From an uncultured Candidatus Saccharibacteria bacterium (GTDB lineage: Bacteria; Patescibacteriota; Saccharimonadia; Saccharimonadales; CAYUUR01), in assembly GCA_964448075.1 (NCBI GenBank), contig CAYUUR010000002.1, positions 222,010 through 286,009 on the forward strand: 64,000 bases of DNA. Reading direction: 5' to 3'. Positions 5,900-61,727 of this stretch are shown here, one piece after another. A program made the position numbers and the translations under genes. The notes beneath the pieces are model-generated. The model saw nothing but the letters and a program-made list of their open reading frames with translations. It was not told the DNA's origin and ran no database searches. Position 1 is the stretch's first letter; every line of letters begins with the position of its first letter.

Positions 5900-6541
5900 T
5901 TATTGTGCGCTAGATTGCTTGTTGATTTCTTCGTCGAGGATCTTTGCAAAGGCTTCGTATGTCTGTGGTGTTTCAGTTATCACCCGACCATTGAGCACAA
6001 ACGTTGGTGTACCAGTAATGTTAAGTTTTTGCCCCTCTCCGACATCGGCATTAATGGTATCGAGCACAGCAGAGCTTGCGCTATCTACTTTAAACTGCTC
6101 GACATTAATACCTAGTTGTGTTGCGTAATCTTCAAATATTGCTGTAGCGTTACTGCTCTTTGCCCAGGCATCCTGTTGTCCGTACAGTAGGTCATGCATT
6201 TCCCAGAACTTACCTTGTTTGCCAGCTGCTTCTGCTGCGCGAGATGAAGCCATGGCATTTTGGTGAATCTGAACGAGTGGGAAGTGTCGGAATTGGAATG
6301 CAATTTTGTCTTTGTAGTCAGTCTTTATCTGGGACACGATAGGGAAGTAGGCTGCACAAGCAGGACATTCAAAGTCGCCATACTCAACGAGTACTACTTT
6401 GCTATCAGCTTTGCCCGTTATGTGTTGGCTTGCTGTGCCTTGGCTGTTGCTGGCGGTGTCATCATTGTTCTTGGTGATGAAGAAAATACCGCCTAAAACG
6501 ACGATACAGCTGATTAAAATGAGTAAAAATCGATTGTTCAC
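5900..6541 (-). CDS. DsbA-family thiol:disulfide oxidoreductase, membrane-anchored
   Basis: 213 aa with an N-terminal TM anchor, a CPAC active-site motif (YGDFECPACAAY) and a thioredoxin-fold length. Confidence 0.8.
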   Translation of the reverse strand: MNNRFLLILISCIVVLGGIFFITKNNDDTASNSQGTASQHITGKADSKVVLVEYGDFECPACAAYFPIVSQIKTDYKDKIAFQFRHFPLVQIHQNAMASSRAAEAAGKQGKFWEMHDLLYGQQDAWAKSSNATAIFEDYATQLGINVEQFKVDSASSAVLDTINADVGEGQKLNITGTPTFVLNGRVITETPQTYEAFAKILDEEINKQSSAQ

Positions 6542-21177: not shown

Positions 21178-21863
21178 CCACTTCTTTCTCACCAGCTAAA
21201 GCTCCCGGCCTGTTCTTTGCTTAAAGGCATGCATTAAATTTATCTTACCGAGCAAAGCTCGGCGCCCATCTCCTTTTGCTCCGCCAAAAGGAGCAAAAGC
21301 TCCCGGCAGAACAATAACAGGCCTGATCTGTTGATATTGCTCACAACGGCACGGCCAACTCACCGCAGTTTACTGCGGCTCAAACACGACCGTGCCATTA
21401 TGTTGATGATCAATACAACATCTCAATCAGGGCCTTATGCTCTATGCCGGTAACCACTCCCGGACGATCAATCTAGAATATGTACGTCCGGGAGTGGGGT
21501 CCGGGCATGAAGCAGACACCTGAGTAGATGTAGTAAAAAGGGCTGGCCCTTGGGGTTCCTTCGGGTGTTTGAGGGAATAGTTATGCCTTGACGGCATGAC
21601 TATTACCGAGTTACGAAGGCAAAGCCCGTTTTTACTACAGATACATCAAGTGTTTGATTCGGCCCGGTGGTTTTACTCCACTTTTGCCATTCAAAAGTGG
21701 GATGTGATTTGGTTCTTTGGAAAAGAACTTATTGGTTTTGGCGGACCAAAAGGAGGGGGATGACAGCTTCAGCTGACAAAAGGAATATGAATCATACTAA
21801 CCACACCTTGCTCACCCCATAAAGCTCATGCTAAACTACCCCTAATAACAAGAGAGAGTTATT
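21178..21863 (+). ncRNA. large structured non-coding element, copy A (unclassified)
   Basis: 686 nt with no ORF of 60 aa or more. It is repeated at 57408-57969 with identical blocks separated by hairpins that differ in sequence but keep their pairing. T.G wobble pairs fit the + strand only. Confidence 0.55.
21829..21837 (+). promoter_or_regulatory. extended -10 box (TGCTAAACT) of propeller operon A
   Basis: Identical in both operon copies (the second is at 57935-57943). It lies 26 nt upstream of the conserved TTG start. Confidence 0.45.
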
Positions 21864-23768
21864 TTGGGTACCAAATCGCTACTAACACACAAAAAAACCA
21901 CACTAACAATCCTAGCCCTATTAGCTAGCCTATTGCTCTCCATCCTAAATCCTTTACGAGCTAGTGCTGTAATACCAGGGACGCCAGTGGAGGGTTTCTC
22001 GGTTATTGCCAGTGGAGGAGTGTATGCAACGGCCGTAACCAACGACGGTACGCTATATATTGGTGGATACTTCACCTTAGTTGATGACACTGAGTTACCA
22101 GATTATCGAACATTAGTCAGGATTTTACCCAACGGCGAGGTTGACAATAGTTTTGATGTCGGTATCGATAACCAAGTCACTACGCTTGAAGTTTCTCCAG
22201 ACGGAGAGACTCTGTTTGTCGGAGGATTCTTTAATGAGGCCACCGGGTCGAATGGAACTTTTGACAGGCGCAACCTAGTATCCTTCTCTACGGACGATGG
22301 CGTAGTAACAGCCTTTGATCCAAGACCAAGTGGCTACGTTCATAATCTTGAAATAAACGCAGCTGGAACGACAGTGTATGTTGCAGGGGAGTTTACAACT
22401 GTAAACAGCCCATTCGTCACACGCAATCGTTTAGCCGCTTTCGATACGAGCACTGGCGTTGTATCAGCTTTTAACCCCAATCTAGGAACGCGTTCATATG
22501 CACTGGCTCTCGATGAAGCGAATAATACTCTTTATGTGGGCGGCCAGTTTGTTACCGTTAATGGAGGCACGACGCGGAGGCGTTTGGCTGCCTTTAACAC
22601 TTCCACTGGCACAGCAACAGCATTTAATCCAAACATAGACAGTTCGGTCGTTACAGCGAGCTCAAGCAATATTGTATACTCGCTGCTCTATGACGATGAT
22701 AGCGGTCTGTTATACGTAGGCGGCAGTTTTACTACCGTAAACGGTGGAACTGTTCGTAACCGCCTCGCTGCTCTTAGTACTTCTACTGGTACCGCAACCG
22801 CTTTTGACCCTAACCTAGGTGCTCAAGTAGAAGATCTAGCACTTGATACCAACGATCAGGTTTTATATGCCTCAGGTACTTTCACTACCGTAAACGGCGG
22901 GACAGTTCGCAATCGTCTTGCTGCGTTCGATACGACTACAGCCACAGCGACGTCTTTTGACCCTAACCCAGATAGCCCATTGTATGCTTTGTCGTTTGAT
23001 TTGCCACGGAAGGCTTTATACACTGGCGGTGACTTTACGCAAATTGGCGGCATTGCACGTAACGGCCTTGCCGCCTTCCAAGACCCCGACCTAGACAACG
23101 ACGGCACCCCCAACACAGAAGAACAAGCTGCCCCAAACAATGGTGACGCCAACAACGACTCTATCCCAGACTCCCAACAAGCCAACGTCACCTCCATCCT
23201 CAACACCGACTCTAATGAATACGTCACCATTGTTTCTCCCTCTGGCACCACGCTCTCTACCACCACAGCAGAAGCCGCCCCCACTGAAGCAGGCTTCACC
23301 CATCTCTTTGGCCTCACTGGCTTCACTATCTCTGGTGTAACTCCCGGAGACACTATAGAAGTATCACTCTTCTATCCCAACCCAAACAACCTAGACCCAA
23401 CTGACCTAACCCCCAAGAAATACTTCCCATCCACCACCAGCTACCAAGACCTCCCAACCACTGCCCCCACTAACACCACCATCACAGAACAAACCATAGA
23501 CGGACAACCAACCTTGAACCTCACATACAACCTCACAGACGGAGGAGACTACGACCTAGACAACACAGCAGACGGACAAATCACAGATCCAGTGTCTCTA
23601 GCTTCCACTAACCCTACTACGACAACAGAAACCACCAACACCTCCACATCCAACCAAGACACCCTCGCCGAGACCGGACAGAGCCAAACCATGATCCTCA
23701 TCACCTCCATGCTCCTAGTTAGCCTAGCTACCACCGCCTACACCTACAGGAAGAGACAGGACATATGA
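21864..23768 (+). CDS. LAETG-anchored surface protein, DUF5122/delta-60-type beta-propeller repeats
   Basis: TTG start and signal peptide ...LNPLRASA. About 9 repeats fit the form LYVGGxFTTVNGGTxRxRLAAFxTSTGTATAFNPN. An acidic DLDNDGTPN..NNGDANNDSIPD stretch follows. The C-terminus is LAETG + hydrophobic + RKRQDI. Confidence 0.85.
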   Translation: MGTKSLLTHKKTTLTILALLASLLLSILNPLRASAVIPGTPVEGFSVIASGGVYATAVTNDGTLYIGGYFTLVDDTELPDYRTLVRILPNGEVDNSFDVGIDNQVTTLEVSPDGETLFVGGFFNEATGSNGTFDRRNLVSFSTDDGVVTAFDPRPSGYVHNLEINAAGTTVYVAGEFTTVNSPFVTRNRLAAFDTSTGVVSAFNPNLGTRSYALALDEANNTLYVGGQFVTVNGGTTRRRLAAFNTSTGTATAFNPNIDSSVVTASSSNIVYSLLYDDDSGLLYVGGSFTTVNGGTVRNRLAALSTSTGTATAFDPNLGAQVEDLALDTNDQVLYASGTFTTVNGGTVRNRLAAFDTTTATATSFDPNPDSPLYALSFDLPRKALYTGGDFTQIGGIARNGLAAFQDPDLDNDGTPNTEEQAAPNNGDANNDSIPDSQQANVTSILNTDSNEYVTIVSPSGTTLSTTTAEAAPTEAGFTHLFGLTGFTISGVTPGDTIEVSLFYPNPNNLDPTDLTPKKYFPSTTSYQDLPTTAPTNTTITEQTIDGQPTLNLTYNLTDGGDYDLDNTADGQITDPVSLASTNPTTTTETTNTSTSNQDTLAETGQSQTMILITSMLLVSLATTAYTYRKRQDI

Positions 23769-32701: not shown

Positions 32702-32777
32702 GGGGGTGTAGCTCAGTGGTTAGAGCAGTCGGCTCATAACCGATTGGTCGAAAGTTCAATTCTTTCCACCCCCACCA
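32702..32777 (+). tRNA. tRNA with CAU anticodon, probable tRNA-Ile2 (lysidine substrate)
   Basis: Hand-folded cloverleaf: GGGGGTG/CACCCCC acceptor, GCTC/GAGC D stem, GTCGG-CTCATAA-CCGAT, TGGTC, GAAAG-TTCAATT-CTTTC, A, CCA. The D arm and TTGGTCG variable region resemble E. coli ileX. Confidence 0.8.
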
Positions 32778-38138: not shown

Positions 38139-38798
38139 CTAGTTAAAACGGAATGATTTAACGATAGCTCGGTATTCATCGAGGTACTTGTCAAAGTCAG
38201 GGTTAGTTGTGTCAGCATAGTTGATTATGTACACCACATCGTCCTTATAGAACTGTGTTTTAAGGCTCGGTGGCCCTTCATAACCCAATCGATACTCAAC
38301 AGCATCTTGTCCGGCTACTTTGAGTGATTTCTCGTCACTGGTATACAGAACCTTGCCACTAACATAATCTGCGATAGATGTCTTTCCTTGGGCTGTTTGA
38401 GCACTTACCGTAACGATCGCGCCCTTAGTAACTCCACCGTAGGCATCATCAGTTTTCTCTTTGTAATCCGCTGATTTAATGTGTACTTTTGAATATACCC
38501 CAGTGAAACCTTCTGGCTTTGCGACTTTTTCAATGGTCCACTCTTTTGGATAGTCAAAAGAGTACTTTAACTCAGAATGCGTGTAGGTGGCTGTTTTGTC
38601 TTCAGTCTTATTAGTCTCGGTATCACTGTTTGTTGTTGCCGGTTGCGTCGTCTGTGTGATTGCGGCTGTATTGTCATTTTTTGATTGCTGCCGGTCATAG
38701 ACAAGCCAACCCACTGCGCCCAGAAGTCCTAAAACCACGACTACGACGATTACTTCTACAACACTGAAGCCTTTTTGATTTGTTTTCATTATATTCAT
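38139..38798 (-). CDS. type IV pilin-like protein (prepilin N-terminal cleavage/methylation domain)
   Basis: MNIMKTNQKG|FSVVEVIVVVVVLGLLGAVGWLV has a G|F cleavage site with Glu at +5. A T/S-rich linker follows. Confidence 0.85.
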   Translation of the reverse strand: MNIMKTNQKGFSVVEVIVVVVVLGLLGAVGWLVYDRQQSKNDNTAAITQTTQPATTNSDTETNKTEDKTATYTHSELKYSFDYPKEWTIEKVAKPEGFTGVYSKVHIKSADYKEKTDDAYGGVTKGAIVTVSAQTAQGKTSIADYVSGKVLYTSDEKSLKVAGQDAVEYRLGYEGPPSLKTQFYKDDVVYIINYADTTNPDFDKYLDEYRAIVKSFRFN

Positions 38799-38821
38799 TC
38801 GATTTCTCCAGAGTTAATTTG

Positions 38822-39517
38822 CTAGTTAAACCTTATTGATTTGATGATATTCTCAGCTATTTTCCACTCAGAACTGTTGACCTGCTCGTCGTATGAGTAC
38901 GTCGAGGTCATGCCTTGCCCCCAACAAAAAGAACCGTAGATAAGTAGGTACTTCCCATTTTTCAGCTTTGTTGAGTACGTGCTGTCAGTGCCGACAGAAA
39001 TCTGGGGACAGGTGCTCTTGCTTGGTCCTGTTGCATAGTTTATGTTTTCTTTTTCTTTCCACAGCGTCAGTTTATTTTGCAGTAGCTTGGTGGTTCCATT
39101 AGGGTATGTATTAAATGGAGCTGCCTCTGGCTTTCTAGTTGTGATATTGATATCCATCCCAAAGTTGTTGGATTTATTATTTTCTTCACTTTGATTCAGA
39201 ATACGTATAATATTCTCGTTCCCAGAAAGATTCGCTGTTCCTACATTATTTTCATAGCCAGTAATCCGCCACTGGGCTGGGTATTCTAGGGTAAAGCCGC
39301 CGTACTTGGAAGTATAGGTTGCCATTTCCTCAGTCTCTTTCGTATCTTCCTTTGGCTGTTCTTTTGCCTCGCTAACAACATTTGTTGGTGCAGGAGCAGT
39401 TTGGGGCGCATCTTTCTGTCGGTCATAAACTAACCAGCCTACTGCACCAATAAGTAGAACTACTACAAGTATTAGGATCAACTCTATTGCACCGAAGCCG
39501 TTTTGATCTTTTTTCAT
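38822..39517 (-). CDS. type IV pilin-like protein
   Basis: MKKDQNG|FGAIELILILVVVLLIGAVGWLV with Glu at +5. Confidence 0.85.
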   Translation of the reverse strand: MKKDQNGFGAIELILILVVVLLIGAVGWLVYDRQKDAPQTAPAPTNVVSEAKEQPKEDTKETEEMATYTSKYGGFTLEYPAQWRITGYENNVGTANLSGNENIIRILNQSEENNKSNNFGMDINITTRKPEAAPFNTYPNGTTKLLQNKLTLWKEKENINYATGPSKSTCPQISVGTDSTYSTKLKNGKYLLIYGSFCWGQGMTSTYSYDEQVNSSEWKIAENIIKSIRFN

Positions 39518-39530
39518 GGGTTCCCCTTAG

Positions 39531-40208
39531 TTAGTTTTCAAACGTGATTGTCTTAAAAGCGTATTCAACGGACTTAACATCCAAGGGTTCTTTTTCATAG
39601 TAACCATAAGACGCGTTTAGTTTTTGGTTGGCTTTCTTGAAGAAACAACCTTTAGATATGAAATCACCTTTGTCGTCAGCCATCTTTCCAATAGGGTCGT
39701 CTTTGCTTGTTGTTATTGTTTGTTTACAGTAGCCAACGGTGCCGTCGTTCAGTGTAAATTTTTCGCCGTCCGTTATTTCTTCGTTATATTCATTGACAGA
39801 AACCTTAATACCAGGAACATATCCGCCGATGCCGCTATTCGCAGTCTTTTTTACAGTGGGCTCCGTGGCTTCGTTGTATCTCAGCTTGTCTACAGAATAT
39901 TGGAAGAAGTAATCGTAGGTAGTATCCTCTTCAACCGTCCAGCCATTCAGGATGTCCATACTAAATGCGCCTTTAGATGATGTATAGCTTTTGGCCTTGT
40001 ACTTTTGTTCGCTGGCTGGCTCTTCGGTTTTCTCTGTGGTAGTTTGTGCCGCGCTCTGAGTGGTTGCCGTTTGCGTACTGTTAGTCTTCTTGTCTTGTTG
40101 TTTGCTATATATAAACCAACCAACCGCAGCGATAACGCCCACCACGGCAAGTACGATGACTATTTCTACTGCACTGAAGCCTTTTTGATTTATCTTGATT
40201 TTTTTCAT
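39531..40208 (-). CDS. type IV pilin-like protein
   Basis: MKKIKINQKG|FSAVEIVIVLAVVGVIAAVGWFI with Glu at +5. It is the first gene of a three-pilin operon. Confidence 0.85.
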   Translation of the reverse strand: MKKIKINQKGFSAVEIVIVLAVVGVIAAVGWFIYSKQQDKKTNSTQTATTQSAAQTTTEKTEEPASEQKYKAKSYTSSKGAFSMDILNGWTVEEDTTYDYFFQYSVDKLRYNEATEPTVKKTANSGIGGYVPGIKVSVNEYNEEITDGEKFTLNDGTVGYCKQTITTSKDDPIGKMADDKGDFISKGCFFKKANQKLNASYGYYEKEPLDVKSVEYAFKTITFEN

Positions 40209-41403: not shown

Positions 41404-41508
41404 TTGCATTCCTTGTTAACTCTGAGCTAAGCATAATCTATTTTCTGCGAACAAGAAAGACCTACTGAGTTGAAGTTGTTATTCTTGTTGCCGTGGGAGC
41501 AGGTAAAC

Positions 41509-41624
41509 GCACATATGGAAGCCGTGCTCGGAGTAAAACTCCTGTGCGCGGCTTTGATGACCGAACCGCGACTTTCGCCAGCGGAGCTGTCGAGTCGCAG
41601 AACCGAGCCAGACTCACCGCCAAG
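41509..41624. ncRNA. structured element S, copy 1 (unclassified; strand uncertain)
   Basis: Shared with 51502-51616. It has a GCTCGG...CCGAGC closing stem and a GGAG-loop-CTCC hairpin. The central hairpin is CCGCGAC..GTCGCAG here and CTCCGAC..GTCGGAG in copy 2, so the arms are fully swapped. Confidence 0.45.
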
Positions 41625-41660
41625 AAAAAAGACCTGTCTCAAGGACAAGTCTCTTTTCTT
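41625..41660. terminator. bidirectional terminator hairpin
   Basis: AAAAAAGACCTGTC-TCAAG-GACAAGTCTCTTTTCTT, essentially identical to the terminator after tRNA-fMet at 51617-51652. Confidence 0.65.
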
Positions 41661-41735
41661 GGTAGCGCAGGTACGGTCGAATTGGAACGAAGTGCTTATA
41701 GAGTTGGCTCGGTGGAATATGTCATCCACCGAGTT
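41660..41735 (-). repeat. tRNA-fMet-derived pseudo-tRNA box, copy A
   Basis: On the - strand it ends ...CGTTCCAATTCGACCGTACCTGCGCTACCA. It retains GCTACCA, a TTCGA core and a CTCTATAA relic of the CTCATAA anticodon loop, but no acceptor pairing. Confidence 0.45.
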
Positions 41736-41746
41736 CAATCTCTCAG

Positions 41747-42412
41747 TTAATAGTCTAGAGTTTTAATACTTGCTTCAACTAGATCCTTTTGGCTAGTGTC
41801 TCCCTTGTTGACGCGATAACTTAGCACGATTGAGCCATTATCAACTCTAGCGTAGTAGCCGTAGGACACCGTTCCCTTAGTCATGCCATCCTCCCCACCT
41901 TTTCCGACGTACTTGTACTTCTTGACGGTATCACCATTGTTTAGCTTTAAGCTGCCGTCAGGTTCCGAAGCGCTGAAGTAGTTGCTTTGCGCATCTTTGG
42001 AGTACTGAATGACAAAGGTTGTTCCTGCGTAGCCGCCTCCTCTGTGCCCGTACTCATTGTTAATAGTAGCTGCAGTGCCTTCCTTGTAGTTCATGCCTGC
42101 TTCGCGGGCATAGGCGTAGTCTAGCTCTGTGTCGTTCGTGAACACCCACCCATCCGGTACGTTAAGAGTGAACTTACTGTTAAGTGATGTTAGTTTTTTA
42201 TTTAAAGAGAATTCACTTTCTGCTTTTGGCGTTGCTGGGGTTTCGTTTAGTTGTTGAGTGGGTTCTGTTTTAGTACTGGTAGTTGTTGTCGCGTTATTTT
42301 TGCTCTGCTGTCTGTCATACACGAGCCAACCAACAGTGCCGATAAGTCCAACAATTACGATAACTACAAGTACTTCTACTGCACTAAAACCTTTTTGATC
42401 TAACCTTTTCAT
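41747..42412 (-). CDS. type IV pilin-like protein
   Basis: MKRLDQKG|FSAVEVLVVIVIVGLIGTVGWLV. The start at 42412 follows an AGGAG SD. The ORF-track start at 42445 would run into the promoter. Confidence 0.85.
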   Translation of the reverse strand: MKRLDQKGFSAVEVLVVIVIVGLIGTVGWLVYDRQQSKNNATTTTSTKTEPTQQLNETPATPKAESEFSLNKKLTSLNSKFTLNVPDGWVFTNDTELDYAYAREAGMNYKEGTAATINNEYGHRGGGYAGTTFVIQYSKDAQSNYFSASEPDGSLKLNNGDTVKKYKYVGKGGEDGMTKGTVSYGYYARVDNGSIVLSYRVNKGDTSQKDLVEASIKTLDY

Positions 42413-42432
42413 ATATCTCCTGTTATTAATGT

Positions 42433-42449
42433 CTACCATAAGCATAATG
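42433..42449 (-). promoter_or_regulatory. pilin promoter motif (ATTATGCTTATGGTAG on - strand)
   Basis: Conserved with 40231-40247 and 49279-49295. Confidence 0.5.
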
Positions 42450-42495
42450 CTTTTTCACCAAAGAAAAAAGCCCCACAAATGTGAGACTCTTTCCC

Positions 42496-42570
42496 TGGTA
42501 GCGCAGGTACGGTCGAATTGGAGCGAAATAATCACTGAAGTGTGTCGATGGAGCCTAGATTAGCAACCTA
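42496..42570 (-). repeat. pseudo-tRNA box, copy B
   Basis: TGGTAGCGCAGGTACGGTCGAATTGGAGCG differs at 1 position from copy A over 30 nt. It is preceded on the + strand by a hairpin. Confidence 0.45.
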
Positions 42571-44045: not shown

Positions 44046-44131
44046 TAGAAACCAGCTTCCTGACGAGGAGGCTGGTTCGCCCTTTTCAAACAATAAAACA
44101 ACCATCATCCGCAAGTCATAATGCTTATGCT

Positions 44132-44205
44132 TGGTAGCGTACGTAAAATCGGACTGGAACCTAATCTGTACCGAGCTTAACAGATGGAAGCAGGCATTAG
44201 GGGTC
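44132..44205 (-). repeat. pseudo-tRNA box, copy C
   Basis: On the - strand it ends ...TAGGTTCCAGTCCGATTTTACGTACGCTACCA. Its T-loop region is the closest to that of the authentic tRNA-fMet (CAGGTTCGAGTCCTG). Confidence 0.45.
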
Positions 44206-44243
44206 GTACCAGAGTCCCGTTAGGATGGCGTACAAGATTAAGC

Positions 44244-48342: not shown

Positions 48343-48368
48343 CAGCACATGATAACAAACAACTACAC

Positions 48369-48385
48369 AGGACTCGAACCTAATT
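48369..48385 (-). repeat. isolated tRNA T-arm fragment
   Basis: CAGGACTCGAACCT is identical over 14 nt to the T-arm of tRNA-fMet at 51664-51677, in the same orientation. No acceptor or anticodon arms are present. Confidence 0.4.
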
Positions 48386-48443: not shown

Positions 48444-48455
48444 GTATCTTGCACT

Positions 48456-48530
48456 TGGTAGCCCAGGTTCGGTCGGATTGGAACGAAGTATTTGCGGAGT
48501 TGAATAGGTGGATGCGGCTTTCTGGTGATG
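48456..48530 (-). repeat. pseudo-tRNA box, copy D
   Basis: TGGTAGCCCAGGTTCGGTCGGATTGGAACG lies between the pilin stop codon and its terminator. Confidence 0.45.
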
Positions 48531-48548: not shown

Positions 48549-49262
48549 CTATTTGATCACGACAGAGTTCGCGATATCTTTAACTTTGGATTCGTATTCT
48601 TGGAAATCATAGGTCTTGCCACCGTAAGGCTTATATTCTTCGCCGCTATACTCAGAGCCAGTAAAATCATACCTTGTTCTTGCTGACACATATACAATCT
48701 TGCCCTGTGCTGAGATGATATAGTAAACGTCTTCAATGCCGCCGTGTTCTTGCCTAGTGAATTTAAGATAATACGCCAAATTGCCATTTATAGGTTCCTC
48801 AGATGTTATATCGTTTTCAGAAGGATAGCCTATTGAAGCTCCACCATCGGTTGAGTTTGCCCACTCCTGAGGAGTCTGGTCTTGCGGGTTATCAAACACG
48901 CATACGTCTACAGAAAAACTTGGTTCTTTTGAATCCTCCGATTTCTTAACAGGCAGTAACTCCACTGAATCCAAAACTTTCTCGTTACCAAATATGGGAG
49001 CACCCTGTTTGCAGCCTACATTACCTTGTGCCCAAGCTTCAGGAGCTTCAAAAGAAACGGCATCATCTGCAAGGGTTATTTTTTGGGTTGGGAGTTTTTG
49101 CTCCGTTTCTTGTGCTTGTGTTTGATTTGTCGAGTTACCAGGTGACTTGTTGTTTTGCCGTTGCCATACAAACCAGCCGATTCCACACGCGAGAACGACA
49201 ACAACTGCGACTACCAATACTTCTACTATACTAAAGCCCTTTTGATTCAACTTTTTCATCAA
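48549..49262 (-). CDS. type IV pilin-like protein
   Basis: MMKKLNQKG|FSIVEVLVVAVVVVLACGIGWFV with Glu at +5. Confidence 0.85.
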   Translation of the reverse strand: MMKKLNQKGFSIVEVLVVAVVVVLACGIGWFVWQRQNNKSPGNSTNQTQAQETEQKLPTQKITLADDAVSFEAPEAWAQGNVGCKQGAPIFGNEKVLDSVELLPVKKSEDSKEPSFSVDVCVFDNPQDQTPQEWANSTDGGASIGYPSENDITSEEPINGNLAYYLKFTRQEHGGIEDVYYIISAQGKIVYVSARTRYDFTGSEYSGEEYKPYGGKTYDFQEYESKVKDIANSVVIK

Positions 49263-49295: not shown

Positions 49296-49349
49296 CTTTC
49301 CTCATCAATAAAAAAGACCTCCCAGAAGAGAGGCCATAATACTTATGCT

Positions 49350-49425
49350 TGGTAGCCCAGGTTCACTCGAATTGGAACGTGACTAGCGTGGAGTTAGCGA
49401 GATGGATAAGGCTATCTGCTCAAAT
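49350..49425 (-). repeat. pseudo-tRNA box, copy E
   Basis: TGGTAGCCCAGGTTCACTCGAATTGGAACG. The downstream GCGAGATGG aligns with GCGAGCTGC in the tRNA-fMet D arm. Confidence 0.45.
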
Positions 49426-51463: not shown

Positions 51464-51501
51464 TCTCAGAGTATATCAAACTACAGTGAGAGTAGGGCAA
51501 T

Positions 51502-51616
51502 GCACATCTGCAGCCGTGCTCGGAGTAAGCTCCTGTGCGCGACTTTGATGACCGAACCTCCGACTTTCATCTGCTGAAACAGCTGAGTCGGAGAACCGAG
51601 CCTAACTCACGTCCAA
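51502..51616. ncRNA. structured element S, copy 2
   Basis: See 41509-41624. It lies between the terminator of tRNA-fMet and the promoter of the histidine phosphatase gene. Confidence 0.45.
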
Positions 51617-51652
51617 GAAAAAAGACCTGTCACAAGGACAAGTCTCTTTTCT
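51617..51652. terminator. bidirectional terminator after tRNA-fMet
   Basis: AAAAAAGACCTGTC-ACAAG-GACAAGTCTCTTTTCTT. The internal C.A mismatch on + becomes a G.U pair on -, which fits termination of the - strand tRNA. Confidence 0.65.
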
Positions 51653-51727
51653 TGGTAGCGGGAGCAGGACTCGAACCTGCGACCTCGTGGTTATGAGCCA
51701 CGCGAGCTGCCACTGCTCCATCCCGCG
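51653..51727 (-). tRNA. tRNA-Met (CAU), probable initiator
   Basis: CGCGGGA TG GAGC AGTGGCA GCTC G CGTGG CTCATAA CCACG AGGTC GCAGG TTCGAGT CCTGC TCCCGCT A CCA. It has an unpaired 1:72 (C.U) and A11:U24, both initiator hallmarks. Only 2 of the 3 usual G-C pairs in the anticodon stem are present. Confidence 0.8.
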
Positions 51728-52224: not shown

Positions 52225-52301
52225 GGCGGCGTAGCTCAGCTGGTTAGAGCGCAGGACTCATAAGCCTGAGGTCAGTGGTTCAAGCCCACTCGCCGCTACC
52301 A
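52225..52301 (+). tRNA. tRNA-Met (CAU), elongator type
   Basis: GGCGGCG TA GCTC AGCTGGTTA GAGC G CAGGA CTCATAA GCCTG AGGTC AGTGG TTCAAGC CCACT CGCCGCT A CCA. Y11:R24 indicates an elongator, and the D arm resembles E. coli metT. Confidence 0.8.
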
Positions 52302-52368: not shown

Positions 52369-52926
52369 ATGTTGAATGTTATTCGTCATGAAGGTAGAGA
52401 GGTCATGTTTGGCTACGGTTTTAACGAAGCCAATGACTTTGGGATTTATTTTCCAGAGCAAGTTAATGCTGAGGATGTGGCGGAGTTTGCGAGAGCGCAA
52501 AGTGATTTAGTTGCCGATGTTGAACTAGTAGAGCCAGTTCAGCTACTCCCCCGTATGTTTGATCCCCGACTGGCACATTTAAATAAAGGTAAAGAACAGG
52601 CGGCACGAGTTGAATTGTTGGACAGGTGTCGGCATTTTGAATTACCTGAAAGACTAGAACAAGAGTTTGACCCTGTAGCTAAGCCATGGCAGGCGAATTA
52701 CGCAGGCACCTTAACCGGTGACCCGAACACACCTTTGTACGTAGTAGTTGAAGGCGATAGAGAAGATCTGCGTAGCTTCTTGAGCGAAACAGATGAGATA
52801 CGCCTTGGCGCGCTTGCGGTAATCGATCAGTTAAGTTTTTCGATTGAATCTCCAGATGCGACTAAGGTTGCCAGAGAGCTTCCTCGCCAATACACTGCTA
52901 GTCTTTCCCCGTGGCTAGAACCATAA
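52369..52926 (+). CDS. hypothetical protein
   Basis: 185-aa ORF. A TGGTATAAA box lies 9 nt upstream. Confidence 0.5.
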   Translation: MLNVIRHEGREVMFGYGFNEANDFGIYFPEQVNAEDVAEFARAQSDLVADVELVEPVQLLPRMFDPRLAHLNKGKEQAARVELLDRCRHFELPERLEQEFDPVAKPWQANYAGTLTGDPNTPLYVVVEGDREDLRSFLSETDEIRLGALAVIDQLSFSIESPDATKVARELPRQYTASLSPWLEP

Positions 52927-54605: not shown

Positions 54606-55499
54606 ATGAAAATTGCTCGTTTGCCAAAAGGTCGCTACGTCGTGGCTGTTTCTGGGGGTGTTGATTCGGTTGTATTGCTTGATCTTTTGCGACGGCAGCC
54701 CCAGCTAGAACTCATAGTAGCTCACTTTAACCATGGCATACGTGCTGACGCTGATGTAGACGAAATTCTCGTCTCCAAACTGGCTACTGATTATAATCTT
54801 ACGTTTGTAAGTGAACGTGGCCAGCTGGGGATTGATGCAAGTGAATCAGCGGCCCGCACGGCACGATACCGTTTTTTGCACCATATCAAAGAATCAAACA
54901 AAGCTCGGGCGATAATTACGGCGCACCACGAAGACGATATGCTCGAAACAGCAATCATTAACGTCTTGCGCGGGACTGGTCGGCGCGGTCTGAGTGCGCT
55001 TGGTTCAAATGAGGTACTGATCCGTCCACTACTCCACGTTCATAAAAAGGCTATTTATGACTACGCCGAGAAACAAAAACTAACCTGGCACGAAGACAGC
55101 ACTAATCAAGACGAGAAGTATCTACGCAACTATGTCCGCCAGAGCATTCTGGCCAAGTTTAGCCAAGAACAAAGGGAGCAATTATTGGAGATTGTACAAA
55201 AGGCCCGACAGCTCAACACGGCGATTGATGAGATACTGCACAAAGACTTCCATATTGATGTTAATGCTGACGCCATTAGTAGGCACTGGTTCATTATGCT
55301 GTCTCATACGGTCGCAAAGGAATTTATGCTCAGTTGGCTTCGTAAGCAAAACGTCACGTTGCAACTTGACCGAAAAACGCTTGAGTACGTGGTGCAGCAA
55401 GCCAAGACGCTCTCACCCGGGCAGGAAATCACTGTTAACAAGGAATGGAAGATAAATATCAGCAAAGAAGGATTAGCACTCGCGCGGCGAGACCGCTAG
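54606..55499 (+). CDS. tilS: tRNA(Ile)-lysidine synthase
   Basis: VAVSGGVDSVVLLDLL PP-loop, AHFNHGIR and HHEDD motifs. A TGGTAGAAT box lies 6 nt upstream of the ATG. Confidence 0.85.
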   Translation: MKIARLPKGRYVVAVSGGVDSVVLLDLLRRQPQLELIVAHFNHGIRADADVDEILVSKLATDYNLTFVSERGQLGIDASESAARTARYRFLHHIKESNKARAIITAHHEDDMLETAIINVLRGTGRRGLSALGSNEVLIRPLLHVHKKAIYDYAEKQKLTWHEDSTNQDEKYLRNYVRQSILAKFSQEQREQLLEIVQKARQLNTAIDEILHKDFHIDVNADAISRHWFIMLSHTVAKEFMLSWLRKQNVTLQLDRKTLEYVVQQAKTLSPGQEITVNKEWKINISKEGLALARRDR

Positions 55500-57407: not shown

Positions 57408-57969
57408 CCTACAGTAAAGCAAACTCCATCATGCCAGCTAAAGCTGACGTTCATCTCCTTTTGGACCGCCAAAAGGAGCAAAAGCTCCCGGCAGCCTCCT
57501 CCCTTGACTGGTCTATTGCTGAAATTGACAATGGCCAGGCCAACTCACCGCAGTAAACTGCGGCTCAAACACGACCTGTCCTTGTATTGCTCAATTTCAC
57601 AATATCCCAATCAGGGCAGAAGACTCTATGCCGGCAACCCCGCCCGGACGTCCATAGCCGCCACTGACGTCCGGGTATGGGCGGGCATGTCCAGGAGTCC
57701 TGAGTAGATGTAGTAAAACGGGCTGGCCCTTGGGGTTCCTTCGGGTGTTTGAGGGAGTTAATATGTCATGTGGCATATTAACGAGTGAGTTACGAAGGCA
57801 AAGCCCGCTTTTACTACAGATACATCACGACTACAGGACGGCCCGAGGGTTTTGGCTACTTTTGCTATTCAAAAGTAGTGAAGGATTTGATTCTTTGAAA
57901 AAGAACGGTGAGGTTGCTCACCCCATAGCGCTCATGCTAAACTACCCCTAATAACAAGAGAGCGTTATT
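57408..57969 (+). ncRNA. large structured non-coding element, copy B
   Basis: 562 nt between ftsH and propeller operon B, collinear with 21178-21863 apart from two A-specific insertions. Confidence 0.55.
57935..57943 (+). promoter_or_regulatory. extended -10 box (TGCTAAACT) of propeller operon B
   Basis: Identical to 21829-21837 and 26 nt upstream of the TTG start. Confidence 0.45.
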
Positions 57970-59868
57970 TTGGGCACTAAAGCACTGCTAACACATACAA
58001 AAACCACACTAACGATTCTAGCTCTAACTGCTAGCCTATTGCTCTCTGTCATTAGTCCTTTACGAGCCAGTGCTGCGATACAAAGCGCGCCGATTTCAGG
58101 TTTCCCACAAACAAATACAAATGGGGCAGTCTACGCTATCGCTGAAGGTTCAGATGGTTCGGTATATGTGGGAGGTCAGTTTACGACAATCGGTGGGGTG
58201 AGCAGGAATGACGTGGCTCGTATTTTATCAGACGGCAGTGTCGACCCTGATTTTAATCCCAATGTAATTGACGGCAGCCATTACGAGGATATGACAGAGG
58301 TAAGGTCGCTAGCCTTTGATAATCAAGCAGGCACGCTCTATATTGGTGGGAATTTCGATACGATTAATGGTAATGTCGCACGGAACGGCCTCGCTGCCGT
58401 TGATGGGCAAACAGGAGTTGTCACGGGCTTTAATCCAAATATTATCTACGGAGATGCCCCTTTTGATTACGTTGGCACAGTAAACACCCTGGAAATCAAT
58501 CAAGATACCAATACCATATACGCGGGTGGTGCTTTCGGCTATGTGAATGGAGCCACCGAGCGCGTTGACTTAGCAGCATTTAGTATGAGTACCGGCACAG
58601 TAACAGGTTTCAATGCCGACATAAGCAACTTTGCATGTATCGAAAAAACAGTCTACGATCTCGATTATGATAGTACTGGCGGGCATCTCTACGTAGCAGG
58701 TCACTTTGGCACGTTTAGCGATACGGCGCGAGGCGGAATAGCGCGCGTTGATTCAGACACTGGGGCGCTTGATGAAGGCTACAATCCAGATATCTCATCT
58801 ACGGAACAACTATGCGCGTATGTATATTCCATTGAGCGATACGATAATGTGGTATATGCAGGTGGAATTTTTGACACAGTTAATGGTTCCGTATCACGTT
58901 CAAACGTTGCAGCTTTTGACACGACCGACGGCACCGTAACTGCGTTTGCACCCGAGCTCGTTATCGATGAGTACCCATTCGTACTCAAATATTTACCTGC
59001 AAGCGAAACATTGCTCATCGGAGGATCAATCTCTCAAGTTAATGGGGTTACAAGGAACGAGCTGGCGGAAGTAAAGGTAATTGACGGAAGTCTCACAGAC
59101 TTCAACCCAAATATTACGAGTAACGCAAATAGTGTCCATGCCCTGGAGTCTCACGCTGATGGTACGCTGTATGTAGGCGGTACCTTTTATCGAGTCGGGG
59201 GAGTCTCCCGCAACGGCCTCGCCGCCTTCCAAGACCCCGACCTAGATAACGACGGCACCCCCAACACAGAAGAACAAGCTGCCCCAAACAATGGTGACGC
59301 CAACAACGACTCTATCCCAGACTCCCAACAAGCTAACGTCACTTCCATCCTCAACACCGACTCTAATGAATACGTCACCATTGTTTCTCCTCCCGGCACC
59401 ACGCTCTCTACCGCCACAGCAGAAGCCGCCCCTAATGAAGATGGCTTCACTCATCTCTTTGGCCTCACTGGCTTCACTATCTCTGGTGTAACTCCCGGAG
59501 ACACCATAGCAGTATCACTCTTCTATCCCAACCCAGACAACCTCAATCCTGACTCGCTAACTCCTAAGAAATACTTCCCGAGTACTACCACGTACCAAAA
59601 CATAGAAGGCGCCACGCTCACTCATGAGATCATCAACTCTCAAGCTACTCTTATGCTCAATTACTCACTGACTGATGGCGGAGGCTATGACCTTGATGGT
59701 GTTGTAGACGGTAGCATTACTGACCCAGTATCGTTAGCGCTCGCCGACGTGGACAGTCAAGCGCTCGCCGACACCGGCAGTATGGTAATGAGCACGTATG
59801 TCTCAATATTGACGTTAGTGGGTGTAGGGGCGGTTCTATTGGTCTTCCAGAGAAGGAGGCGTGTATGA
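57970..59868 (+). CDS. LADTG-anchored surface protein, DUF5122/delta-60-type beta-propeller
   Basis: TTG start. The signal peptide is about 85% identical in nucleotides to that of 21864. The propeller body is divergent. The acidic and pre-anchor module is near-identical to 23061-23450. The C-terminus is LADTG + hydrophobic + QRRRRV. Confidence 0.85.
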   Translation: MGTKALLTHTKTTLTILALTASLLLSVISPLRASAAIQSAPISGFPQTNTNGAVYAIAEGSDGSVYVGGQFTTIGGVSRNDVARILSDGSVDPDFNPNVIDGSHYEDMTEVRSLAFDNQAGTLYIGGNFDTINGNVARNGLAAVDGQTGVVTGFNPNIIYGDAPFDYVGTVNTLEINQDTNTIYAGGAFGYVNGATERVDLAAFSMSTGTVTGFNADISNFACIEKTVYDLDYDSTGGHLYVAGHFGTFSDTARGGIARVDSDTGALDEGYNPDISSTEQLCAYVYSIERYDNVVYAGGIFDTVNGSVSRSNVAAFDTTDGTVTAFAPELVIDEYPFVLKYLPASETLLIGGSISQVNGVTRNELAEVKVIDGSLTDFNPNITSNANSVHALESHADGTLYVGGTFYRVGGVSRNGLAAFQDPDLDNDGTPNTEEQAAPNNGDANNDSIPDSQQANVTSILNTDSNEYVTIVSPPGTTLSTATAEAAPNEDGFTHLFGLTGFTISGVTPGDTIAVSLFYPNPDNLNPDSLTPKKYFPSTTTYQNIEGATLTHEIINSQATLMLNYSLTDGGGYDLDGVVDGSITDPVSLALADVDSQALADTGSMVMSTYVSILTLVGVGAVLLVFQRRRRV

Positions 59869-61727
59869 GTTTGGCGCGAAGAATGACTGCGTTCTCTTTG
59901 GCAATTAGCTTTGCATTTATTGGCATGATTACTTTACTCAATCCTATGAGTGTGCATGCGGCCTTACAGGACACGGCGATTGCTGATTTTCCTGTAACAA
60001 ACGGTGCAGTGTATGCAATTGCTGCTTCATCTGACGGGTCAGTATATATCGGCGGTACATTTACCTCTGTAGACGGAGTTTCACGACGTAATGTTGCACG
60101 GATATTGAGTGATAATTCTGTCGACCCAGACTTTAATCCGAGCATTTATGCGGACGGGGATAACCCTGATGTAGTCAATTCATTTGTACTTGATGAGAGC
60201 ACTGCAACATTGTACGTTGGCGGTGGCTTCAATACTGTTAATGGGTCAACGACCAGGAATAATGTCGCAGCCGTTAATTCAGAAACAGGCCTTGTGACGG
60301 CGTTTAACCCGAACGTGAATGGCATGGTTCATACCCTTGAGCTTAATCCGGATGATGACATCCTGTATGCCGGCGGAAGCTTTACGACGGTCAATGGCGG
60401 TACGAGTCGCAAAGACCTGGCAGCATTCAACATTAATACGTCGACAACAACAGCATTCGATGCAGACATAGAAACGACAACGTGTGATGTGGGGGCAGAA
60501 ACAGTGTATGACTTGCTGTTTGACGCAAACGCCGATCGTCTATACATAGCTGGTCATTTCTATTCAGTCGCAGAACATTATTCACGTGGTCTGGTGTCCG
60601 TTAATCCAACAAGTGGCGCACCTGATGCAGCATTTGACCCAGATATAAGGTATTCAGGTGATGACGCCGATCTTGGACAGTGTTCAGATATATACAGTAT
60701 TGAAAAGTTAGGTAGTACGATATATGCTGGCGGATTCTTTGATAATGTCAATTCAGGTGCTGAAACTCGCACTAACTTCGCTGCATTTAACGCTGCAACC
60801 GGCGAGGTGACCACACTAGATATGGCATTCGATTATGCTGTGTATGATCTGGCGATCGACCCAATAGGTGGGGATCTTTACTTAGGCGGTAGTTTTTCTA
60901 TGGTTAATGGCTCAACTCAGAGAAATGAAGCCGCTGCCATTGATCTCGATACAGGTGAACTCACAACCTTTAACCCAAACATAACTACCGATCCTCCCGA
61001 ACCCTCTGTCCATACTATAGCTTTTAGTGATCGTGGCTATTTTTACGCTGGCGGTACTTTTGATCGTGTTGCCGGTGAGCCGCGAGCGAGTTTGGCGGCC
61101 TTTGCTAACCCCGATCCTGACAACGATGGCACCACCAGTGAAGTCGAAGATGCTGCCCCAAACAACGGTGATGCCAACAACGATGGTACCCCCGATGCCG
61201 AACAGGCTAATGTCACCTCATTCGTTAGTGCCGAAACAAACCAATATGTCACCATCGTCACGCCGTCAGGTACGACGTTATCAACGGTAACAGCCGCAGC
61301 AGCCCCAACTGAAGACGCCTTCACTCATTACTACGACCTCGTGGGCTTCACGGTAGAAGGAGTGACGCCAGGGGCTTCCATAGACATAACTATCCTGCAG
61401 CAAAATCCTGATTCAATTGAGGCCGACCAGCTGACTGCCCGCAAATACTTCCCAAGCACGGCCAGCTACCGAACCATTCCAAATGCCACCATTAGCAATC
61501 AAACTATCAACGATCAACCCGTACTCAGCCTGGCATTCAGCATTACAGACGGCGGAGACTACGATCTCGACCAAGCAGCTGACGGCAGCATTACCGATCC
61601 CGTATCGCTCGCCGCCACAGACCAAGACACCCTCGCCGAAACAGGACAGAACCAAACCATGATCCTCATCGCCTCCACACTCCTACTCGCCCTATCTCTA
61701 TACAAAGCCAGAAAGCTATACACATGA
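59865..61727 (+). CDS. LAETG-anchored surface protein, DUF5122/delta-60-type beta-propeller
   Basis: ATGA-coupled start. Repeats fit the form LYxGGxFxxVNGxxxRxxxAAxNxxTGxxTxFNPN. The C-terminus is LAETG + hydrophobic + KARKLYT. Confidence 0.85.
   Translation: MSLARRMTAFSLAISFAFIGMITLLNPMSVHAALQDTAIADFPVTNGAVYAIAASSDGSVYIGGTFTSVDGVSRRNVARILSDNSVDPDFNPSIYADGDNPDVVNSFVLDESTATLYVGGGFNTVNGSTTRNNVAAVNSETGLVTAFNPNVNGMVHTLELNPDDDILYAGGSFTTVNGGTSRKDLAAFNINTSTTTAFDADIETTTCDVGAETVYDLLFDANADRLYIAGHFYSVAEHYSRGLVSVNPTSGAPDAAFDPDIRYSGDDADLGQCSDIYSIEKLGSTIYAGGFFDNVNSGAETRTNFAAFNAATGEVTTLDMAFDYAVYDLAIDPIGGDLYLGGSFSMVNGSTQRNEAAAIDLDTGELTTFNPNITTDPPEPSVHTIAFSDRGYFYAGGTFDRVAGEPRASLAAFANPDPDNDGTTSEVEDAAPNNGDANNDGTPDAEQANVTSFVSAETNQYVTIVTPSGTTLSTVTAAAAPTEDAFTHYYDLVGFTVEGVTPGASIDITILQQNPDSIEADQLTARKYFPSTASYRTIPNATISNQTINDQPVLSLAFSITDGGDYDLDQAADGSITDPVSLAATDQDTLAETGQNQTMILIASTLLLALSLYKARKLYT

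Follow-up and report, generated by a model that had tools for sequence, protein, structure and literature searches.

A hairpin-rich unit, termed here S, occurs twice within the 64,000-nucleotide stretch of Candidatus Saccharibacteria DNA that was analysed (the window), and at every locus where it was found it proves to be a mosaic of the tRNA gene beside it. The best reading is that S is not an independent small RNA (sRNA) gene and that it acts at the DNA level. Tentatively, and with somewhat less than an even chance of being right, we take it to be a small, non-autonomous, att-like DNA module that sits at the 3' halves of tRNAs, at an integration hotspot of Saccharibacteria. S looks like an insertion or recombination module because it consists mostly of direct and inverted tRNA copies arranged around a single hairpin.

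Two copies of S in the window

The two copies of S (W1 and W2) occupy positions 41489-41668 and 51482-51660, which is slightly wider than the limits given in a first-pass annotation made from the sequence alone. They share 87% column identity over about 225 columns (MAFFT, 41480-41700 versus 51473-51692); an independent repeat search of the window recovers the pair as D11 and D20, with a spacing of 9991-9993 nt; and the 14-mer TTGATGACCGAACC occurs exactly twice in the 64 kb. These results bear out the two copies that the annotation had reported, and the features that it had quoted--the common sequence blocks, a GGAG/CTCC hairpin, the central hairpins and a common terminator hairpin--are all found in the sequence. 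It was also right that a C.A mismatch in the terminator on the plus strand reads as a G.U pair on the minus strand. The observation of a real, conserved, hairpin-rich unit is thus confirmed; the interpretation placed upon it is supported in part.

Open reading frames overlap copy 1 on both strands, but single-nucleotide indels between the copies break every frame, and S is therefore taken to be non-coding.

A mosaic of the neighbouring tRNA

Local alignments to the neighbouring tRNA reveal the same mosaic at every S locus found (W1, W2 and, from relatives described below, L023 and L028). Along the window's plus strand a unit begins with a displaced copy of the terminator and positions 1-16 of the tRNA reverse complement, a piece that covers the acceptor 3' strand and the T-stem 3' strand, that is, the last 16-20 nt of the tRNA. 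For copy 1 this is a decayed segment at 41450..41503 (minus strand), identified by local alignment to 51615-51668 and by an exact match to GGGAGCAGG; it forms the distal direct repeat of that copy. Beside copy 2 a remnant of the displaced tRNA 3' fragment (GTGAGAGTAGG) lies at 51486..51496 (minus strand) and is 82% identical to the copy-1 fragment; the remainder of the distal direct repeat there is not recognisable.

Next comes a predicted hairpin of about 50 nt, termed INS, with fixed feet GCACAT...TGATGA(C). INS occupies 41504..41559 in copy 1, with feet and architecture that are conserved in L023 and L028, and 51497..51550 in copy 2, where it is recognised by its fold. It is followed by a left arm corresponding to positions 16-31 of the tRNA reverse complement, which comprise the T-loop, the T-stem 5' strand and the variable region, all reading in the direction of the tRNA gene (copy 1: GAC-CGAACC-GCGAC, 41560..41572, minus strand). 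Then come TTTC, a small apex hairpin and GAG; by its fold the copy 1 apex, TTTC GCCAGC GGA GCTGTC, spans 41573..41591. The right arm corresponds to tRNA sense positions from about 41 to 70 and runs through CCAAG; it is, in other words, the tRNA 3' half in inverted form (copy 1: variable region, T arm, acceptor 3' strand and CCAAG, 41592..41624, plus strand). In copy 2 the left arm, apex and right arm together form a palindrome at 51551..51617, delineated by local alignment, folding and pair counts; this tRNA-derived palindrome, or long helix, is termed here P2.

Each unit ends in a terminator hairpin, beyond which lies the real tRNA gene. The copy 1 terminator (41625..41660) has T-runs on both strands and, together with an adjoining GGTAGCG, is 98% identical to the one that follows tRNA-fMet. 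That GGTAGCG is a tRNA 3' end fused to a pseudo-tRNA-fMet repeat (D5 copy c41648; 41661..41716, minus strand, from repeat alignment). The copy 2 terminator (51618..51653), assigned by its fold and the same 98% identity, is common to S and the tRNA-fMet gene that abuts it. That gene, which the annotation had correctly taken to be authentic, is an intact tRNA-Met(CAT) at 51727..51653 (51653..51727, minus strand), found by ARAGORN and by Rfam (62 bits); it is initiator-like, having a 1-72 mismatch, and its 3' CCA is gene-encoded.

The S unit thus comprises about 110-120 nt between an intact tRNA with its terminator and a displaced second terminator with a tRNA 3' end. About two thirds of it is the 3' half of the adjacent tRNA, in one direct and one inverted copy; the two copies can form a long paired palindrome, within a unit whose predicted overall fold is a Y. 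The arms track the adjacent tRNA: beside tRNA-fMet they are fMet-type (CGAACCTGCGAC and GTCGCAG...), and beside tRNA-Arg they are Arg-type (CGAACCACCGAC and GGTCGACGGCTCAAATCTGTCC, with a 19/22 match to the tRNA-Arg T arm). Between W1 and W2 the identity varies by segment (terminator 98%, INS 84%, arms 85-86%, apex 55%), which fits a mosaic history.

Because these alignments disclose a tRNA mosaic, the central hairpin is best described as an inverted repeat of the adjacent tRNA: of its two arms, one copies the variable region and T arm directly and the other in inverted form, which is why they pair. The first-pass annotation had called this hairpin fully swapped but still paired. The arms, being fMet or Arg copies according to their neighbour, speak against an RNA stem that evolved independently by compensatory change, and 'fully swapped' suits the apex only; for the outer stem it is too strong, inasmuch as CCGCGAC/GTCGCAG in copy 1 and CTCCGAC/GTCGGAG in copy 2 are one compensatory pair and one indel apart. 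Relative to the tRNA itself, the outer stem of copy 2 differs by one compensatory pair (TGCGAC/GTCGCA to TCCGAC/GTCGGA). The W1 apex is of the type seen in the tRNA-Arg version L028 and is unlike the W2 apex. A proposed long-range pairing of GCTCGG with CCGAGC does recur in L023 (as CGCTCGG/CCGAGCG) but is missing from the tRNA-Arg version; moreover, it competes with a local stem, and it is the local stem that covaries.

INS is the only part of S without a tRNA derivation. It interrupts the direct tRNA copy within the T-loop (at about position 57-60/61), and compared with shuffled sequences it has no significant similarity to the tRNA, to the tRNA 5' half or to the terminator (best p = 0.07); an origin from the 5' half or the terminator was rejected on this basis. 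In the fMet and Arg versions INS has the same feet, the same T-loop position and the same architecture, and its stem sequences are completely different. Across the three lineages pairing is kept with wholly different stems, and GGUUCGGUCAUCA and GAAAGUCG are invariant; the stems covary, in sequences too few for statistics.

Relatives and signs of insertion

Among 25 matches in GTDB representative genomes one is a true relative (L023) and the other 24 are due to chance. L023 is a Candidatus Saccharibacteria MAG in which S lies directly beside tRNA-fMet on the same relative strand, so that the placement next to tRNA-fMet for which the first-pass annotation had looked to other genomes does recur. 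A metagenome scan returned three true contigs (L028, L032 and L035), all from one lake population, along with six chance matches in coding DNA. Judging by a neighbouring protein, this population also belongs to the Saccharibacteria; its S adjoins tRNA-Arg(TCG), not tRNA-fMet. These three lineages are the only ones from which S is known.

Searches elsewhere were negative. S had no match in phage or plasmid collections, which led us to reject a phage or plasmid origin; within IMG/VR the specific S patterns gave no matches, and a loose pattern gave 48 chance matches that fall in coding DNA, none of them near a tRNA. Exact look-ups of neighbouring proteins returned the same genome only, in contigs that break at S or at D5. 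Homologues of a histidine phosphatase (His_Phos_1) encoded next to copy 2 sit in mobile contexts (type IV secretion, reverse transcriptase and defence) without a tRNA, homologues of a 185-aa gene (52369-52926) have other neighbours, and neither set led to a further S.

Several features indicate insertion. In L028 a perfect 57-nt direct repeat, consisting of the terminator and 16 nt of the tRNA, stands on either side of a 111-nt S, and W1 and L023 have decayed equivalents of it. This is an att-type arrangement: direct repeats of a tRNA 3' segment flank S, and an intact tRNA is present. L032 and L045 contain at least two tandem S units with a period of 168 nt, and L023 has a second, degraded unit distal to the first. 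The difference between one unit in L028 and two in L032 and L045 could reflect assembly collapse and, for this reason, is not relied on here. An empty site occurs in L041, a relative with 78% identity in the neighbouring protein; there tRNA-Arg(TCG) and its terminator are followed directly by unrelated sequence, with no S. Such a site was seen for tRNA-Arg only. Because only three lineages are known, the argument for mobility rests on this one empty site and on the contrast between the fMet and Arg versions.

Pseudo-tRNA repeats and gene sets at the tRNA-fMet locus

The first-pass annotation had described a badly decayed pseudo-tRNA beside copy 1, and had concluded that S was kept while the adjacent tRNA decayed. 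The pseudo-tRNA is there, but it is no singular relic: it belongs to a five-copy, 60-70-nt pseudo-tRNA-fMet repeat, D5, that lies on the minus strand throughout. The conclusion fails accordingly, since copy 1 has a repeat-family member as its neighbour and since both S copies would derive from one flank distal to the tRNA, duplicated to either side of some 10 kb of inserted gene sets.

In alignments, D5 covers tRNA-fMet from its anticodon loop as far as its 3' end. The D5 copies have derived defects in common, including a 4-nt deletion in the acceptor strand; the family was therefore propagated as a pseudo-tRNA. Besides c41648, the repeat search placed copies at 42484..42552, 44117..44212, 48444..48512 and 49338..49406 (all minus strand). 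The first of these four ends in GCTACCAGG, as the only one of the five to do so, and the others, like c41648, end in GCTACCAAG; most copies then carry a terminator of their own (copies 2, 4 and 5 among them). A GCTACCA(A/G)G junction is common to all copies of D5, to S copy 1 and to the tRNA, with seven exact matches versus 0.5 expected. A stray 14-nt stretch identical to part of the tRNA-fMet T arm (AGGTTCGAGTCCTG; 48368..48381, minus strand) lies just downstream of the terminator that follows copy 4. Neither ARAGORN nor RF00005 makes a call at S or at any D5 copy, though the similarity to segments of tRNA-fMet is clear. D5 was rejected as a structured RNA, RNAalifold having found no consensus pairs.

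The D5 copies split the 10 kb between the two copies of S into five small gene sets. These encode a pilin-like protein; an MFS transporter; four genes that include a BNR-repeat protein; a second pilin-like protein; and three genes, the last of which is the histidine phosphatase next to copy 2. A Pfam scan of window ORFs for recombinases (integrase, resolvase or transposase) found none; between 11.8 and 57.4 kb it covered every ORF that reaches 180 aa in 26-57.4 kb, together with ten ORFs in 11.8-23.8 kb. The 8 kb scanned in L023 and the 3.5 kb scanned in L028 likewise contain no recombinase, and no compositional signal of an island is seen across 41.6-51.5 kb. The position to the left of the 185-aa gene is variable among relatives; in one of them it holds an island with a large serine recombinase beside tRNA-Leu. 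The window's tRNA-fMet thus appears to be an integration hotspot at which small gene sets have accreted.

A proposed att-like module at tRNA 3' halves

On the favoured reading, recombination at the 3' half of the tRNA would have given rise to S and would let it spread or persist. S would then resemble an integrated element cut down to its attachment site, with the recombinase encoded elsewhere and acting in trans, and the hairpins of S may represent the architecture of a recombination site, either as protein-bound inverted repeats or as a folded single strand. The five gene sets, each ending in a D5 joined at GCTACCAAG, would have accreted at the 3' end of tRNA-fMet; copy 1 and its terminator would be the old downstream flank, displaced by 10 kb and joined to D5 at GCTACCAAG, and copy 2 would be the equivalent flank that now lies beside the working tRNA gene. 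The mechanism, the enzyme in trans and the order of events are what we infer from these arrangements.

Several observations count against an att-like module. No recombinase turned up among the ORFs scanned, and S is known from three lineages only. S has also held up better than the displaced tRNA fragment beside it, a sign of some constraint. The duplicated segment is host-specific, spans the whole terminator and is longer than a typical crossover core. Furthermore, INS has covarying stems and fixed feet, and the wobble pairs described below favour one strand; this is the pattern of selection on a folded RNA or single-stranded DNA, and covarying stems with one-stranded wobbles would not be expected of protein sites in duplex DNA.

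Folded-strand readings and other alternatives

The latter observations would be accounted for if S were a structured RNA made from the tRNA-sense (minus) strand, either as a read-through 3' trailer of the tRNA or as a separate transcript extending to the displaced terminator. Its Y fold (the long helix plus INS) would then be functional, for example, as a processing or stability element or as a mimic of a tRNA arm. This we consider unlikely. The long helix has a predicted energy of -23 to -24.5 kcal/mol on the minus strand versus -17 to -21 kcal/mol on the plus strand, and is 3-6 kcal/mol more stable on the minus strand in all four versions; INS is more stable there in three of the four, the exception being W1 (-26.1 on plus versus -18.7 kcal/mol on minus). 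In an alignment of five minus-strand sequences over the 21-pair P2 helix, with the structure predicted on that strand, 97% of cells pair, and in 7 of the 21 pairs both partners have changed. The helix has 18 wobble cells, every one of which is G.U on the minus strand and A.C on the plus strand, with none reversed, so that, if S folds as a single strand, they would all point to the tRNA-sense strand. The minus strand of L028 is predicted to form a clean three-way fold (z = -3.7), the INS stems differ by lineage yet pair around the invariant GGUUCGGUCAUCA and GAAAGUCG, and the terminator mismatch, too, is a G.U pair on this strand.

As the helix originated as a palindrome, however, its pairing is expected without selection. 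The arms of inverted repeats can become homogenised, and paired changes can appear in them, through template switching alone, with no selection on RNA (PMC8604942; bioRxiv 10.1101/2023.04.19.537475). A single multi-nucleotide change (AAC to GUU) accounts for the wobble block in the fMet group, which leaves few independent wobble events, and G.T pairs would favour a folded minus strand of single-stranded DNA equally. In addition, S lies downstream of the hairpin and T-run of the tRNA terminator, neither strand of S has a promoter-like site, such an RNA would need for its completion the displaced tRNA 3' fragment, which has decayed in W1, W2 and L023, and Rfam holds no relative.

A folded strand of DNA, rather than of RNA, is the basis of a more specific proposal, which we regard as quite unlikely: that S is the attachment site of undescribed, tiny, non-autonomous integrative elements in Saccharibacteria, used as a folded circle or single strand of about 170 nt. 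The inverted tRNA-arm copies would imitate the double-stranded T arm of the target, and INS would mark the crossover; the site would work like an integron attC or CTX attP(+), with a recombinase in trans. At tRNA-fMet the result would be an integron-like array of pilin and surface-protein gene sets, each bounded by D5.

Alternatively, S could be a passive scar of replication error, with neither function nor mobility. Template switching at two natural hairpins, namely the terminator and a hairpin near the anticodon or variable region, would produce a direct-inverted-direct triplication that was later trimmed. As in a tandem inversion duplication, the copy order and junctions fit S: direct copy, apex hairpin, inverted copy, terminator hairpin and real gene follow one another with the junctions at hairpins, and the inverted copy continues through CCAAG into the terminator. 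Short-range template switching is, moreover, documented to create and homogenise hairpins (PMC8604942, PMC5453318). What makes a scar improbable is INS, which is not derived from the target and yet is homologous between the fMet and Arg versions, something not to be expected of replication accidents that happened independently. The apex type that W1 has in common with L028, rather than with W2, is likewise unexplained by a scar, and the conserved blocks of S outlast the displaced tRNA fragment next to them, which suggests some constraint.

Least supported, and very improbable, is the first-pass proposal of a plus-strand sRNA of 120-150 nt that ends at the bidirectional terminator and evolves by compensatory change: S does run directly into a hairpin and then a T-run on that strand, the W1 INS is more stable there and the whole unit folds well (z = -3.0 to -3.5), but upstream lie only a decayed tRNA fragment and a terminator, with no promoter-like site, the long helix would contain 18 mismatched A.C cells, the C/D-box-like Rfam matches reach 14-15 bits where the thresholds are 45-50, and conservation of the CUGA box is lacking. 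A minus-strand RNA or a folded minus strand of DNA is more plausible.

Identities rejected

At gathering thresholds in Rfam 15 only three tRNAs pass in the window. Under permissive settings, the best models for both S copies and L032 are those of miRNAs and snoRNAs, at 14-33 bits versus thresholds of 45-180. The Rfam comparison that the first-pass annotation had proposed thus yields no family, and a known RNA family was rejected, only tRNAs having been recovered at either setting. UGAUGA is present in all versions of S, CUGA in W2 and L023 only, and UCGAG in W1 and L028; box D not being conserved, and the C/D models scoring as low as noted above, a C/D-box RNA or K-turn was rejected. A resemblance to SRP or hammerhead motifs was seen by eye only (CUGAUGA in L028), with no stem II/GAAA arrangement and no Rfam support. 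A riboswitch or leader of a downstream gene was rejected on the ground that the genes adjoining S, downstream ones included, differ at every locus. As an integron attC, S offers (by inspection of W1, W2 and L028) ACCGAAC, a 6/7 match, and no inverted GTTRRRY partner. A MITE-type transposon was rejected in view of two copies in 64 kb, both at tRNA-fMet-derived junctions, and a flanking duplication of about 55 nt. Accordingly, S is not the randomly scattered repeat that the first-pass annotation had held up as the opposing case: its copies, which appear to be inserts, are confined to the 3' ends of tRNAs.

Comparison with known systems

The repeats flanking S are within the range described for identity segments at tRNA att sites. 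As at att sites and in cis-mobilizable elements (CIMEs), a complete tRNA is regenerated and a copy of the displaced tRNA 3' end stands at the far side of the unit; as in CIMEs, S has no recombinase in cis; as in accretion arrays, units pile up in tandem at one tRNA; and, as with att elements, the locus is a variable hotspot among relatives. Att remnants, CIMEs and accretion arrays at tRNA genes are reviewed in PMC5704250, and tandem islands at ssrA have been described in Dehalococcoides (PMC3146451). Unlike these, the S unit measures only about 110 nt plus a 55-nt repeat, it has an inverted tRNA 3' half and a hairpin in the T-loop, its repeat covers the host terminator, and no integrase was found in the sequences scanned.

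Integron attC sites and the attP(+) hairpin of CTX phage are recombination sites that act as folded single strands. Like them, S keeps its structure while its stem sequence varies, and it has short fixed feet; when folded, its inverted repeat can mimic the double-stranded target (the T-arm region of the tRNA); its layout of target half, arm, loop, arm and restored target fits a single-strand exchange; and one of its strands folds better. Unlike attC, S is without R''/R' boxes (RYYYAAC/GTTRRRY) and shows no evidence of IntI or Xer, and the D5 repeats at the borders of the gene sets show no fold.

With the products of tandem inversion duplication and template switching (PMC8604942, PMC5453318, bioRxiv 10.1101/2023.04.19.537475) S shares direct-inverted-direct copies with junctions at hairpins, and apparent compensatory changes that arise at the DNA level; unlike those products, it carries a non-target INS that is common to different tRNAs and lineages. 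In being hairpin-rich, non-coding and about 100-170 nt long, it resembles MITEs, REPINs and Correia-type elements, and the ends of L028 form an imperfect inverted repeat (C-GGACAG); unlike them, S occurs only at tRNA 3' ends and only twice in 64 kb, is flanked by a duplication of about 55 nt rather than 2-10 nt, and is for the most part target-derived. Bacterial sRNAs with intrinsic terminators and tRNA-like RNAs (such as the Y RNA module) likewise have compact hairpins by a terminator and T-arm-like sequence; unlike these, S has no Rfam match, promoter or cloverleaf, and its T-arm sequence is locked in a palindrome. The closest systems are att remnants, CIMEs, folded recombination sites and tandem inversion duplications, none of which S fits fully.

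Implications

For RNA discovery, S is a caution: what looks like perfect compensatory change in a hairpin may come from a palindrome that was copied from an adjacent tRNA and that template switching or recombination can keep paired. If the single-strand folding signal does reflect function, then S would represent a new RNA linked to tRNAs or else a new folded recombination site.

Type IV pilin-like proteins are thought to be important for the attachment of Saccharibacteria to their host bacteria. If S is indeed an att-like module, then tRNA-fMet (and tRNA-Arg) would mark sites at which these ultra-small bacteria take up small gene sets, including those for type IV pilin-like proteins, without a recombinase in cis.

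Gene array bounded by pseudo-tRNA repeats

The 10 kb between the two copies of the hairpin-rich element S form a cassette-like array, in that they are divided into five small gene sets by copies of the pseudo-tRNA-fMet repeat D5. The five D5 copies, all on the minus strand (window positions 41648-41716, 42484-42552, 44117-44212, 48444-48512 and 49338-49406), each have GCTACCA(A/G)G as their final nucleotides, and a separate terminator belongs to most of them. Encoded within the sets are two pilin-like proteins, an MFS transporter, a BNR protein, a QueC-like protein, a hydrolase, an epimerase and a histidine phosphatase; no recombinase was found near the array. An isolated and exact 14-nt piece of the tRNA-fMet T-arm (AGGTTCGAGTCCTG; 48368-48381, minus strand) lies about 30 nt beyond the terminator of the fourth D5 copy, immediately upstream of the hydrolase-like ORF.

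In several samples, short-read contigs terminate within the tRNA T-loop, S or D5 (the contig ends of loci L046 and L047; loci L001 and L055). These repeats break assemblies, and copy numbers taken from MAGs are therefore unreliable.

Paralogous genes of the window

A group of five paralogous ORFs, about 220-237 aa long and with a common 5' end (repeat family D3), is located on the minus strand at 38139-40208, 41747-42445 and 48549-49262. N-terminal methylation motifs of the type IV pilin-like kind occur in the four of these five ORFs that were scanned, including both of those within the D5-bounded array. Common to the D3 ORFs is an upstream motif, ATTATGCTTATGG (family D15), which looks like a shared promoter or leader. 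Long paralogous blocks (families D1, D4, D9, D12, D14, D17 and D18), 80-98% identical between 21267-23768 and 57452-61700, span two gene clusters for large beta-propeller or surface proteins. The blocks also take in the conserved non-coding DNA, about 700 nt in length, that lies upstream of each cluster (21267-21998 and 57452-58104); they have no Rfam match.

tRNA genes of the window and its relatives

Within 20 kb lie three tRNA genes whose anticodon is CAT (32702-32777, 51653-51727 and 52225-52301). Because a gene for a TilS-like PP-loop protein (54606-55499) lies about 2.3 kb downstream of one of them, this tRNA may be a lysidine-modified tRNA-Ile rather than a tRNA-Met.

In the lake Saccharibacteria population that carries S beside tRNA-Arg, tRNA-Lys(CTT) of one contig (L028, 863-1010) carries about 106 nt of inserted sequence at its 5' end, accompanied by a 22-nt duplication of that end (CCAGCTGAGCTACTGGCCCTTA); the insertion is absent from another contig of the same population (L035). 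After S itself, this is a second case there of a small indel at a tRNA gene, and the two are unrelated in sequence. In L023, a MAG with S beside tRNA-fMet, a second, degraded unit (6381-6530) lies distal to the intact S. It comprises the end of one right arm, a terminator and the last 20 nt of tRNA-fMet, followed by GCGCACATC and a short hairpin; it lacks both TGATGAC and the arms.

Possible mobile contexts in relatives and homologues

At the position equivalent to the window's tRNA-fMet hotspot, one relative (L052, 1-9000) harbors an island that adjoins tRNA-Leu(TAG) and that carries copper-resistance genes as well as genes for a large serine recombinase and an AAA_13 protein. The closest homologues of the histidine phosphatase beside S copy 2 (60-70% identity; loci L036-L040) reside in neighbourhoods of type IV secretion (VirB4/VirD4-like, CHAP), reverse-transcriptase or HEPN-defence genes, contexts which suggest that the phosphatase gene is carried on mobile elements.
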